This document shows, one piece after another, positions 24,348 to 57,462 of a stretch of DNA of 64,000 nt. This stretch comes from Escherichia coli (GTDB lineage Bacteria; Pseudomonadota; Gammaproteobacteria; Enterobacterales; Enterobacteriaceae), in NCBI RefSeq assembly GCF_016026235.1, contig NZ_CP065613.1. One strand, written 5' to 3'. The position numbers and the translations under genes were made by a program. The notes under the pieces were generated by a model. That model was not told the origin of the DNA, ran no database searches, and saw only the letters and a program-made list of their open reading frames with translations. Position 1 is the stretch's first letter. Every line of letters begins with the position of its first letter.

Positions 24348-24644
24348 TTATACCTCTGAATCAATATCAACCTGGTGGTGAGCAATGGTTTCAACCATGT
24401 ACCGGATGTGTTCTGCCATGCGCTCCTGAAACTCAACATCGTCATCAAACGCACGGGTAATGGCTTTTTTGCTGGCCCCGTGGCGTTGCAAATGATCGAT
24501 GCATAGCGATTCAAACAGGTGCTGGGGCAGGCCTTTTTCCATGTCGTCTGCCAGTTCTGCCTCTTTCTCTTCACGGGCGAGCTGCTGGTAGTGACGCGCC
24601 CAGCTCTGAGCCTCAAGACGATCCTGAATGTAATAAGCGTTCAT
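24348..24644 (-). CDS. gam: Gam, host RecBCD inhibitor (short 98-aa form)
   Basis: 98-aa [34 protein letters not shown]... with AGGAG upstream; the lambda long-form N-terminus is encoded upstream (start 24765) in a different frame and stops after 50 codons. Confidence 0.85.
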
Positions 24645-24719
24645 GGCTGAACTCCTGAAAATGGCTGTGAAAATATCGCCCGCGAAATGCCAGGCTGATT
24701 AGGAAAACAGGAAAGGGGG

Positions 24720-24863
24720 TTAGTGAATGCTTTTGCTTGATCTCAGTTTCAGTATTAATATCCATTTTTTATAAGCGTCGACGGCTTCACGAAACATCTT
24801 TTCATCGCCAATAGAAGTGGCGATAGTGAATTTAGTCTGGATAGCCATAAGTGTTTTATCCAT
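24720..24863 (-). CDS. kil: Kil (host killing / division inhibition)
   Basis: 47 aa [47 protein letters not shown]. Confidence 0.8.
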
Positions 24864-24996
24864 TTTTGGGAACTCCTGGCTGATTAAGTACGTCGATGAG
24901 TCGTTTCCATCCGTCACGTAATTTACGGGTGATTCGTTCAAGTAAAGATTCGGAAGGGCAGCCAGCAACAGGCCACCCTGCAATGGCATATTGCAT
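24856..24996 (-). CDS. cIII: cIII (FtsH inhibitor), 46 codons here
   Basis: [46 protein letters not shown] then TAA; the downstream in-frame codons NTYGYPD match the lambda C-terminus as recalled. Confidence 0.7.
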   Translation of the reverse strand: MQYAIAGWPVAGCPSESLLERITRKLRDGWKRLIDVLNQPGVPKNG

Positions 24997-25101
24997 GGTG
25001 TGCTCCTTATTTACGCTTTAAATTGCTCCGTGTATTCACTCGTTGGAATGAATACACAGTGCAGTGTTTATTCTGTTGTTTATGCCAAAAATAAAGACCA
25101 A

Positions 25102-53752: not shown

Positions 53753-53792
53753 CAGGACGATACTCATCATTGCCCCGGTTATCCGGGGCTTT

Positions 53793-54197
53793 TTGCATCC
53801 GGAGAACATGATGTTTCTGAAACAGGATACGTTTAATTATGAAAAACAGTCCGTGGTGCTCAGTGAGCTGTCCGGGCTGCAGAGAATTGAATATCTGACG
53901 TTTGTTCAGCAGCGAACGGCAAAGTTTGATGCACAGGAGGGAGAACTGCCGGAGGCTGAACGACAGATTGCTTTTCTGCGTATGGGAATGGATATCAATG
54001 CCTGGCTGGTTTCCCGCTCACTGTGGAATGCTGAGCAGTCTCAGGATGTTGAGACGCTTTGCGCATCCATTATGACAACATGGTCGTATGATGCGCTGGG
54101 CGCGGGGGCGGAGAGGGTTCTGTCGCTGAGCGGTATGGGGACCATTGAGAATGCCGGGGATGATGATCATGAGGCGCTGACGCCGGAAAAGTCCTGA
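53793..54197 (+). CDS. G: Tail assembly chaperone G
   Basis: About 130 aa; MFLKQDTFNYEKQSVVLSELSGLQRIEYL resembles lambda gpG. Confidence 0.75.
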   Translation: MHPENMMFLKQDTFNYEKQSVVLSELSGLQRIEYLTFVQQRTAKFDAQEGELPEAERQIAFLRMGMDINAWLVSRSLWNAEQSQDVETLCASIMTTWSYDALGAGAERVLSLSGMGTIENAGDDDHEALTPEKS

Positions 54198-54205
54198 CGC
54201 GGGAA

Positions 54206-54535
54206 ATGCAGTTTGTCATGCGGCTTGCCCGGGAGTTCCGGCGGGCAGACTGGCGGCGGATGCTGTCGGAAATGTCGGCCACTGAGCTTGGTGAGTGGGG
54301 CGATTATTTCCGGATGCAGAGCTTCAGTGATGTGTGGATGGATGCGCAGTTTGCCTCGCTGAAGGCATTGATCGTGAGAATGGTGTCCGGCAGCAGCGAT
54401 GCTGCGGTGGCTGATTTCAGCCTTTTACCGGAAGAGAACGGGATACCGGAGCGAACGGACGAAGAACTGATGCATCTTGGGGAAGGTATTTCCGGAGGTG
54501 TGCGTTATGGACCAGATAGCCAACCTGGTCATTGA
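54206..54535 (+). CDS. T: T portion of the G-T tail assembly chaperone (-1 frameshift product)
   Basis: ORF in the -1 frame relative to G; G-frame stop preceded by CCGGAAAAG, a candidate slippery region. Confidence 0.55.
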   Translation: MQFVMRLAREFRRADWRRMLSEMSATELGEWGDYFRMQSFSDVWMDAQFASLKALIVRMVSGSSDAAVADFSLLPEENGIPERTDEELMHLGEGISGGVRYGPDSQPGH

Positions 54536-57462
54536 TTTGGGGATTGATGCGGCAGAGTTTAAAAATGAAATTCCCCGTATCAAAAACCTTCTGAATGGTG
54601 CAGCCAGCGATGCAGAACGGTCTTCTGCCCGTATGCAGCGTTTTATGGAGCGTCAGACTCAGGCCGCCCGGCAGACAACGCAGGCGGCTTCTTCGGCTGC
54701 AACAGCCGCATCCGTCCATGCGCAGACGGTGGAGAAGAACGCACAGGCTCATGAACGCATGGCCCGCGAGGTGGAGAAAACCCGCCAGCGCATGGAGGCG
54801 CTGAGCCAGAAAATGCGCGAGGAACAGGCGCAGGCCAGGGCACTGGCGGAGGCGCAGGATAAAGCGGCTGCCGCCTTTTATCGCCAGATTGACAGTGTGA
54901 AACAGGCCGGTGCGGGGCTTCAGGAATTACAGCGTATTCAGCAGCAGATCCGACAGGCCAGAAACAGTGGCGGGGTTGGTCAGCAGGATTATCTGGCGCT
55001 GATTTCGGAGATCACGGCGAAAACCCGTGCCCTGACGCAGGCAGAGGAACAGGCCACCCGGCAGAAAGCGGCGTTTATCCGCCAGCTTAAAGAGCAGGCA
55101 ACCCGCCAGAATCTGTCGTCTTCTGAGTTGCTTCGCGCCAGGGCGGCTCAGCTGGGGGTAAGCAGTGCTGCAGAAGTGTATATCCGCAAAATGGAGCGGG
55201 CAGGAAAAGCCACACATTCGCTGGGGCTGAAAAGTGCGGCAGCCCGGCGGGAGCTGGGGGTGTTAATCAGTCAGATGGCGCGCGGCAATTTTGGTGCGCT
55301 GAGGGGATCCGGGATAACGCTGGCTAACCGTGCCGGATGGACAGGCGCACTGATGTCGCCGAAAGGCATGATGACTGGCGGCGTTATTGGCGGACTTGTC
55401 GCGGCGGTCCTGGGTCTGGGTAAAGCCTGGCATGACGGCCGGAAGGAGGGCGAGGAATTTAACCGTCAGCTGGCGCTGACGGGACATTATGCCGGTGTCA
55501 CTGTCGGGCAGTGGGGCATTTCATGGAAACGATATTGGTATGGTGGCGAAAGCTGCCGCACAGATGGAGCGATCGGTTGGCCAGTCGGTCAGCGATACCA
55601 TAAATCAGTTTAAGCGGCTGAAGGATGATCCTGTAAATGCCGCGAAGGCGCTGGACAATGCGCTGCATTTTTGACTGCCACTCAGCTTGAGCAGATACGC
55701 GTCCTTGGGGAGCAGGGGCGGTCCAGTGATGCGGCCCGGATCGCCATGTCTGCGCTGGCAGAGGAAACCGGTAAACGCACATCTGATATTGATAATAATC
55801 TCAATGCGCTGGGTAGTACGCTGCAAACCTTGTCTGACTGGTGGAAGCAGTTCTGGGATGCGGCCATGAATATTGGTCGTGAAGACTCGCTGGATGCGCA
55901 GATTGATGCGTTACAGGAAAAAATTCAGCGCGCGAAAAAATATCCGTGGACAAACGCCTCCACACAGGTGGAGTACGATCAGCAGCGTCTTAACGATCTT
56001 CAGGAGAAAAAACGCCGGAAGGATTTGCAGGATGCAAAAGCGCAGGCAGAACGGAATTACCAGGAGCAACAGAAACGCCGGAATGCTGAAAATGCCGCGC
56101 TGAACCGGATGAATGAAACGGAAGCTGCACGACATCAGCGGGAAATTGCGCGTATTAATGCCATGCAGTACGCCGACCAGGCTGTCAGGGATGCGGCGAT
56201 ACAGCGTGAAAATGAACGTTACGAAAAAGCCATTAAGAAAAATACACGGGCAACCCGTAATGATGAGGCCACCCGGTTATTGCTGCAGTACAGTCAGCAG
56301 CAGGCACAGGTGGAAGGGCAGATTGCTGCTGCCAGACAGTCAGCAGGCATTGCCACTGAAAGGATGACTGAAGCGCATAAACAGCTTCTGGCCCTGCAGC
56401 AGCGCATCAGCGACCTGGGCGGGAAAAAGCTGACGGCAGATGAAAAGAGTGTGCTGGCCCGTAAGAATGAGCTGATTCAGGCGCTGACGCTGCTGGATGT
56501 GAAACAGCAGGAGCTGCAGAAACAGACAGCGCTTAACGACCTGAGAAAAAAACGGTTCAGCTGACCAGCCAGCTGGCAGACAAAGAACGTGCACTGCGTG
56601 AGCAGCACAATCTGGATATTGCCACTGCAGGTATGGGGGATAAGCAGCGGCAGCGCTACCAGGCACAGTTGCGCATCCGGCAGGAATACCGGCAACAGTT
56701 GCAACAGCTTGAGAATGACAGTCGCCAGAAAGGCACTTACGGGACGGAGGACTACCGGAGGGCTGAGGAGGTGCTGAAGGGGAGCCTGAAGCGACAACTG
56801 AATGAAAACAAACGCTACTGGCAGGAACTGGAAGTGGCGCAGGGCGACTGGAAAAACGGTGCCATGCGGGCGTTTCAGAATTTTACGGCGGATGCGGATA
56901 ATGCGGCGGGAACGGCAGAACAGATGTTTACAGTGGCATTCAGCAGTGCCGGTAATGCACTGGCGACATTCTGTACCACCGGTAAGCTGAATTTTAAATC
57001 CTTTACCTCTTCCCTGTTGTCAGATATGGCCAGAATTATGGCACAGATGGCCATGATGCAGGCGGTAAAGGGCGTCGGTTCTTTATTCGGCTTCACGACT
57101 AATGCTGATGGCGGTGTTTACCAGTCTGCTGATTTGAGTCGCTACAGTGGCACGGTGGTTAACCGTCCGACGTTTTTTGCTTTTGCAAAAGGCGCGGGTG
57201 TGATGGGGGAAGCGGGACCTGAAGCCATTCTGCCACTGCGTCGCGGTGCTGATGGTAAGCTGGGGGTGTGGCGGATACTGGTGGTTCAGGCATGGTGATG
57301 TTTGCCCCGCAGTACAACATTGAGATCAATAACGATGGCACGAACGGGCAGATAGGTCCGGCTGCCCTGAAGGTGGTTTATGACCTCGGGAAAAAAGCGG
57401 CCGCGGACTTTATGCAACAGCAGGCCCGTGATGGTGGCCGGTTAAGTGGAGCATACCGGTAA
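54507..57462 (+). pseudogene. H: Tail tape measure protein H, fragmented by about four frameshifts
   Basis: Tape-measure-like Ala/Gln-rich sequence distributed over five frames (ORFs 54477-55613, 55489-55674, 55671-56564, 56633-57298, 57268-57462); switches at G-run about 55505, T5 at 55672, A7 at 56555, G5 at 57280. Confidence 0.7.

Follow-up and report, generated by a model that had tools for sequence, protein, structure and literature searches.

Genuine lesions and probable homopolymer consensus errors in a defective lambdoid prophage of an Escherichia coli chromosome

When several genes of a prophage are broken in a genome assembly, has the prophage decayed or has the sequence been misread? 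This question is raised by a lambdoid prophage in a 64,000-nucleotide stretch of Escherichia coli DNA (NCBI RefSeq assembly GCF_016026235.1, contig NZ_CP065613.1; the whole stretch is referred to here as ‘the window’), in which the genes for the tail tape measure protein (H), the small terminase (terS) and the antitoxin HigA (higA) are all frameshifted as assembled. A preliminary description of the window offered either the decay of a cryptic prophage or homopolymer error in the assembly as the cause, considered the two to be inseparable from the sequence alone, and called for comparison with orthologous prophages. That comparison does separate them to a good degree, and it indicates that both processes occur: decay is represented by two insertion sequence (IS) elements and an 83-bp deletion, and error is the best explanation for a set of one-base contractions in homopolymer runs. 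On the evidence of sequence comparison, a mixed explanation, in which three genuine lesions are accompanied by seven artefactual contractions, is the likely one.

The comparators were loci of the same lineage that were retrieved by exact-protein look-ups, the most useful of which come from an NCTC long-read assembly (GCA_900449985.1). Between positions 19721 and 40066, the window aligns to the early region of the NCTC prophage (L017) with no substitutions and two gaps, both of which are contractions in the window; between 39271 and 55512, it aligns to an NCTC late region (L050), again with no substitutions and two gaps; and between 54945 and 62490, it differs by one substitution from the start of NCTC contig 5 (L055), which carries the same 83-bp deletion. 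Short contigs from draft and short-read assemblies (L014 and L016, covering 31.4–41.7 kb; L030, covering 43.7–51.2 kb; L038; and L057 and L058, covering 57.4–62.5 kb) differ from the window by zero or one substitution, and here the sole gaps are contractions in the window. The only substitution that separates the window from its nearest relatives in approximately 40 kb is found at position 58766, in the region of tail gene K, where G is present in the window and in two draft assemblies (L061 and L062) and T is present in the NCTC assembly and in four other drafts.

Set against this near absence of substitutions are seven one-base contractions that are private to the window, located at positions 36201, 37556, 43557, 45123, 55668, 56546 and 57262. 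They affect higA, an intergenic T-run, a copy of IS600, terS and, at three sites, H, and five of them break reading frames. A census of each site in all of the fetched loci (11 to 18 per site) found the longer run in every comparator, with the exception of a G5 run in the terS gene of L043. All seven changes are deletions, and the runs that they affect are 6–8 bases long in the relatives. The contractions also depend on run length: of the runs between 19.7 and 59.4 kb, those of 6 or more bases are contracted in 7 of 52 cases, compared with 0 of 541 for those of 4–5 bases. Across 19721–62490, the tally is seven one-base deletions versus at most one substitution. In mismatch-repair-defective E. 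coli, which represents the natural state most prone to indels, 30,061 substitutions were recorded versus 5,324 small indels (PMC8510543); because indels make up no more than 15% of this natural spectrum, seven indels together with at most one substitution would have a probability of p ~1e-5 under real mutation.

Errors in long-read assemblies have been shown to consist mostly of homopolymer-associated false deletions (PMC12007338). The NCTC assembly has private single-base indels of its own in the same region, with which both the window and Illumina contigs disagree, and the length of the A-run at 56546 varies between assemblies (A7, A8 or A9). A search of approximately 15 billion catalogued proteins yielded none of the window's frameshift products, the exception being a 95-amino acid (aa) variant of IS600 orfA, and the proteins created at the IS junction and by the 83-bp deletion are present in the same collection. 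The position of the contractions along the window is also informative. Five of the seven lie in sequence that is multi-copy (IS600, and the late region from 44.5 to 59.4 kb, as in the sister genome), and long runs are contracted in 5 of 24 cases in duplicated segments, compared with 2 of 58 where the sequence is unique (p=0.02). Polishing is presumably least reliable in near-identical copies, which would explain how the contractions are distributed. From these observations we infer that the seven contractions are most probably consensus errors, in the form of under-called homopolymers, and not mutations.

The same conclusion is suggested by the individual genes, of which terS and higA had been correctly described as broken. 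The terS gene (45015–45508, plus strand) encodes a small terminase of the DUF1441 family that is 164 aa in length when intact, and its frame shifts at a G5 run at 45123–45127. This run is G6 in 15 loci, including an Illumina contig (L030) that is otherwise identical to the window across 7.5 kb, and the addition of one base yields a protein that is 100% identical to the DUF1441 protein of E. coli FDAARGOS_943. In higA (35915–36219, minus strand; 101 aa when intact) the shift occurs at codons 6–7, where C6 has been reduced to C5 (G5 on the plus strand, 36201–36205). The six-base run and a 101-aa HTH_3 protein are found in 12 of 12 comparator loci, and repair by a single base results in a protein identical to NCTC HigA. 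The partner gene higB (36219–36497, minus strand) is positioned upstream of higA with an ATGA overlap and encodes an intact HigB-like toxin of 92 aa, and relatives have an identical gene to which the PF05015 domain is assigned; with higA frameshifted, the HigB/HigA pair is not intact as assembled. The intergenic site is a T5 run (37556–37560, plus strand) that follows a GC-rich stem-like sequence and has no coding effect; it is T6 in 11 comparator loci. This site had gone unlisted in the preliminary description, as had a T7 to T6 contraction at 43557 and both of the IS elements considered below.

The tail tape measure gene H is of the lambda type and extends from 54507 to 57462 on the plus strand as five open reading frame (ORF) pieces (54507–55613, 55489–55674, 55671–56564, 56633–57298 and 57268–57462). 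It had been described as spread over five frames; the five pieces are real, but in order they occupy frames 0, 1, 0, 2 and 1, such that only the three forward frames are used. Alignment with the intact orthologs of CFSAN029787 and FDAARGOS_943, which are 3042 bp long, revealed four lesions, all on the plus strand. The first is the 83-bp deletion, with its junction at 55505/55506. The second is a T6 to T5 contraction (55668–55672), where all 15 comparator loci have T6, and the third is an A8 to A7 contraction (56546–56552), where 15 comparator loci have A8 and an NCTC contig end has A9. The fourth is a G6 to G5 contraction (57262–57266), at which the deletion-bearing NCTC copies read G6 followed by T and the other orthologs read G5 followed by TT. 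The earlier statement that the frame switches sit mostly at homopolymers therefore stands for terS, higA and three of the sites in H, but not for the first switch in H, which is the 83-bp deletion.

The 83-bp segment begins with GGGCAGT and is followed by GGGCAGT again, the retained copy of this 7-bp direct repeat being found at 55506–55512. A deletion between direct repeats such as this is typical of a slipped-strand or microhomology event. The same junction is found at two places in the NCTC long-read assembly; it is absent from every matching RefSeq complete E. coli genome, and an exact-junction scan of species-representative genomes returned no match. A 633-aa second fragment of H was likewise found in the NCTC assembly only. 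No short-read contig that spans the three contracted sites in H was found in the exact lineage, in which such contigs begin at position 57356 or beyond. Intact H orthologs are 1013 aa in length and carry the Pfam domains TMP_2, TMP_4 and Tape_meas_lam_C, and repair of the gene in the window, by the 83 bp and three single bases, restores a 1013-aa ORF whose product agrees with the FDAARGOS_943 protein at 1002 of 1013 positions. Both in its sequence and in its position, between the T chaperone gene and gene M, H fits a lambda-type tape measure gene, and as its ORF is cut into five pieces it is classed as a pseudogene of this family.

The two remaining lesions are insertions. IS600 (42615–43877, minus strand) lies in the 5′ end of the KilA-N gene, between the lysis and packaging modules, where it is accompanied by a 3-bp target duplication (GGA); the uninterrupted target is present in one of the comparator loci (L038). 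Within the element, the T-run at 43557–43562 is T6 in the window versus T7 in 18 other copies, including the NCTC copy at the same site. The run sits in an A-rich stretch (on the minus strand) that is annotated with a programmed −1 frameshift, and as assembled the T6 state gives a shorter orfA of 95 aa and alters the frame of orfA relative to orfB. The possibility that T6 is a natural variant was considered, and the site was kept among the private contractions as the same-site NCTC copy and 17 others have T7. A chromosomal inversion or recombination at the early/late junction marked by IS600 was also entertained, prompted by an NCTC copy (L006) that lies 0.5 Mb from the early locus; it was ruled out by the evidence for simple insertion with target duplication (L038) and by the contiguity of the early and late regions in the NCTC assembly (L050).

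The second element belongs to the IS110 family (30031–31486, minus strand) and encodes a 398-aa DEDD transposase (30063–31259). It splits the HTH_36 replication gene into two parts (29721–30068 and 31550–31924), and its insertion point falls within tandem copies of GGGGCAGGAGCTGCCC, which resemble origin iterons. The protein and DNA of the junction are common to the NCTC assembly and two short draft contigs (L018 and L019), with 100% identity. As a separate observation, fewer copies of the GGGGCAGGAGCTGCCC repeat are present in the window than in an uninterrupted relative (L007).

The 83-bp deletion and the two IS insertions are regarded as genuine because they are shared by independent assemblies and are associated with a target duplication or direct repeats. 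The prophage is truly defective, with the IS110-family element in its replication gene, IS600 in the KilA-N gene and 83 bp lost from H. In the mixed explanation, there would be seven under-called runs on top of these real lesions, concentrated where near-identical copies hinder polishing.

Not every departure from the reference state belongs among the contractions. The lambda-type attachment (att) core at the left end of the prophage (18210–18223), between ybhC and int, reads GCTTTTTATACTAA, with T5 (at 18212) instead of T6, versus GCTTTTTTATACTAA with T6 in FDAARGOS_943. It was first counted as a private contraction and was dropped because an independent assembly (L023, GCA_031665325.1) has T5 too; since the state is shared in this way it is probably real, in which case the overlap region for excision would be altered. 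The N-terminal extension of gam had been listed among the broken genes, and here the preliminary description does not hold. Alignment with lambda (J02459) shows one T more (T3 to T4 at 24658–24661), approximately 14 nt upstream of the GamS ATG, and the lambda-type extension is thus out of frame. However, the region has zero gaps against 13 close relatives, the T4 state is identical in all of them, and the 98-aa GamS form (24348–24644, minus strand), whose product carries the Pfam Gam domain in relatives, is intact. The difference is a fixed, harmless polymorphism of the phage clade, and not a break like the others. In the neighbouring region, an 89-aa ORF (24720–24989, minus strand) covers a region that is divided between CIII (46 aa) and Kil (47 aa) in other annotations, and its exact product is labelled Kil on 24 contigs; as the DNA of the relatives is identical, this is a difference in gene calling only.

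The alternative that survives best is that all of the disruptions are genuine and that a dead prophage has gathered frameshifts by replication slippage at homopolymers. We consider it unlikely, although a number of observations weigh in its favour and against the attribution of the contractions to consensus error. Selection would be relaxed, since the IS insertions and the 83-bp deletion leave the prophage demonstrably defective, and frameshifts in a prophage that was already dead would be neutral. Homopolymer runs are, moreover, natural hotspots for real slippage. No contraction was found in the 19.7-kb chromosomal flank, where 0 of 30 long runs are affected (p=0.04 versus the prophage), a pattern that fits decay confined to the prophage, and three of the seven fall in H alone (3 of 8 long runs versus 3 of 44, p=0.04). 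The T5 of the att core, itself probably real, is a homopolymer contraction that is found in another assembly too. The terS G5 run recurs in one other long-read assembly (L043), which is 7 substitutions away, and the 95-aa orfA variant of IS600 is common, being present on 184 contigs; the terS G5 and IS600 T6 states could accordingly be real variants. A separate caution applies to the 83-bp deletion: a single strain might be the source of both the window and the NCTC assembly, which would weaken their independence as evidence for it.

What tells against genuine decay throughout is, in the first place, the mutational spectrum, as seven private indels in approximately 40 kb with at most one substitution are difficult to reconcile with a spectrum of no more than 15% indels, and all seven share one direction. 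With the exception of the terS G5 run of L043 and the 95-aa IS600 product, the contracted states are found neither in sister assemblies nor in the protein collection, and the similar private indels of the NCTC long-read assembly are contradicted by Illumina contigs. In addition, loss of higA would be difficult to tolerate while higB is intact: from what is understood of type II toxin–antitoxin biology, a true higA null beside an intact and identical higB would be expected to be counter-selected. That the seven contractions are real and recent, such that a silent prophage is gathering run contractions far faster than substitutions, strikes us as more doubtful still. Were this so, it could reflect, for example, a local state of multi-copy prophage DNA that is prone to strand slippage, or the spread of frameshifted alleles by repeated gene conversion between paralogous copies of the prophage, and it would mean that the antitoxin has been lost beside an intact toxin.

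A second alternative goes in the opposite direction and treats everything as artefact, including the 83-bp deletion and the join between the tail and early regions, through the collapse or mixing of at least three near-identical tail regions. The repeat structure on which this alternative draws is present: the late/tail region (44500–62500) exists in at least three near-identical copies in the NCTC genome (L050, L006 and L055). One of these copies continues directly from the same early region and contains an uninterrupted H, and the other two carry the 83-bp deletion (L006 having it as well as L055), one of them opening a contig inside H. The window corresponds to copy A up to approximately 57.5 kb and to copy C from 54.9 to 62.5 kb; because its left part matches copy A and its right part matches copy C, the join between A and C is placed inside an exact repeat of approximately 11 kb. 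Either assembly could be mis-joined there, or the strains could differ by recombination, and the difference between the window and its relatives comes down to a choice among at least three repeat copies. A tract of type B from 55.5 to 59.4 kb, at one time interpreted as a gene-conversion patch, was superseded by L055, the third NCTC copy, which matches the window from 54945 to 62490. Nonetheless, artefact throughout is very unlikely. The deletion has an exact junction, bordered by a 7-bp direct repeat, that recurs at two loci of a second assembly; an 83-bp consensus error would be an atypical error mode; and, from 57356 onwards, short draft contigs agree with every base of the right part of the window.

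Functional switching, whether by programmed ribosomal or transcriptional frameshifts or by phase-variable runs that control prophage genes, is contradicted by the comparison. Homopolymers can support slippage, and the annotation of IS600 places a programmed −1 frameshift at its A-run, but the shifted state is not conserved, one contraction is intergenic, and in all orthologs H, terS and higA are each encoded by one unbroken ORF that has the longer run, which excludes programmed frameshifting. The canonical GGGAAAG slippery site was not found at the end of gene G.

The prophage runs from approximately 18.2 kb to the end of the window and is integrated at the lambda attachment site beside ybhC. 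It begins with int and xis, followed by exo-bet-gam, kil/cIII, N and cI/cro/cII, and continues through the HTH_36 replication gene, a gene for a 968-aa primase-helicase, the nin genes, higBA, antirepressors, Q and the lysis genes. Beyond these are the KilA-N gene, the DUF1441-type small terminase gene, a gene for a 700-aa large terminase, the portal gene, a protease-capsid fusion, and the tail genes in the order Z-U-V-G-T-H-M-L-K-I-J. The ORFs of J, the large terminase, the portal and the primase-helicase are unbroken, in agreement with the earlier description. Overall the prophage is roughly 45 kb in size, and most of it is still in place and collinear with functional relatives.

The chromosome that carries it belongs to the enteroinvasive E. 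coli (EIEC)/Shigella type, as marked by ipaH and IS600. Positions 1–21000 match E. coli FDAARGOS_943 at 99.9% and contain a phage-tail remnant, ipaH, pgl, ybhH, ybhI, ybhJ and ybhC, followed by the att site and the integrase gene. Within positions 1–8600, the ipaH effector gene (6760–8586, minus strand) is intact and encodes 608 aa, and it is adjoined by a second phage remnant with baseplate and tail-fibre genes. In this remnant, a tail ORF of 424 aa (2892–4166) is intact in the window and is represented by two pseudogene pieces in FDAARGOS_943, the flank of which also has three additional IS insertions (IS1, an IS5-family element and IS600). An exact look-up of a 338-aa LysR-type ORF gave no match, and that of the lysozyme lacked the specificity to recover the NCTC locus. 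Among the chromosome-length assemblies of this group, those of the CP1825xx series (contigs of 4.4–4.6 Mb; L022 and L024–L029) have purL shattered into many small ORFs, which illustrates that heavily frameshift-laden assemblies of the group exist in the databases.

For quality control, the practical consequence is that the sequence as assembled would overstate the decay of the prophage, as five extra pseudogene lesions would be called from it, including a seemingly orphan HigB and a fragmented H. The genuine picture would be of a largely complete prophage that has been inactivated by two IS elements and one 83-bp deletion, in a genome that contains a number of tail regions almost identical to its own, as in the ordinary domestication of prophages of the EIEC/Shigella type. 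Nothing in this is novel: a standard defective lambdoid prophage is combined with what is probably documented long-read consensus behaviour, and no new biology is implied.

Each of these components can be set beside a known system. Cryptic lambdoid prophages that have been inactivated by IS elements and deletions include Rac, DLP12 and Qin in E. coli K-12 and the IS-ridden prophages of Shigella. The prophage in the window resembles them in its classical att site, in the presence of IS600 and an IS110-family element in phage genes, in the internal deletion of a structural gene, and in the ipaH effector genes and phage remnants nearby; unlike them, it is mostly present, with three genuine lesions documented. 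The programmed −1 frameshifts of the lambda G/GT chaperones and of IS3-family transposases are similar in that the frame changes at slippery or homopolymeric sequence, in the same neighbourhood and in IS600 itself, but those sites are conserved in all orthologs, whereas the switches in H, terS and higA are conserved in none. The closest likeness for the contractions is to the homopolymer errors of long-read and hybrid assemblies, as addressed by the Kastor tool (PMC12007338), which are also single-base false deletions, dependent on run length and confined to one assembly, where a one-base repair restores the ORFs and a sister long-read assembly shows a set of its own. The window differs from that description in the low density of its contractions, with 7 in approximately 40 kb of prophage and 0 in the 19.7-kb flank, and in their concentration in multi-copy prophage and IS sequence.

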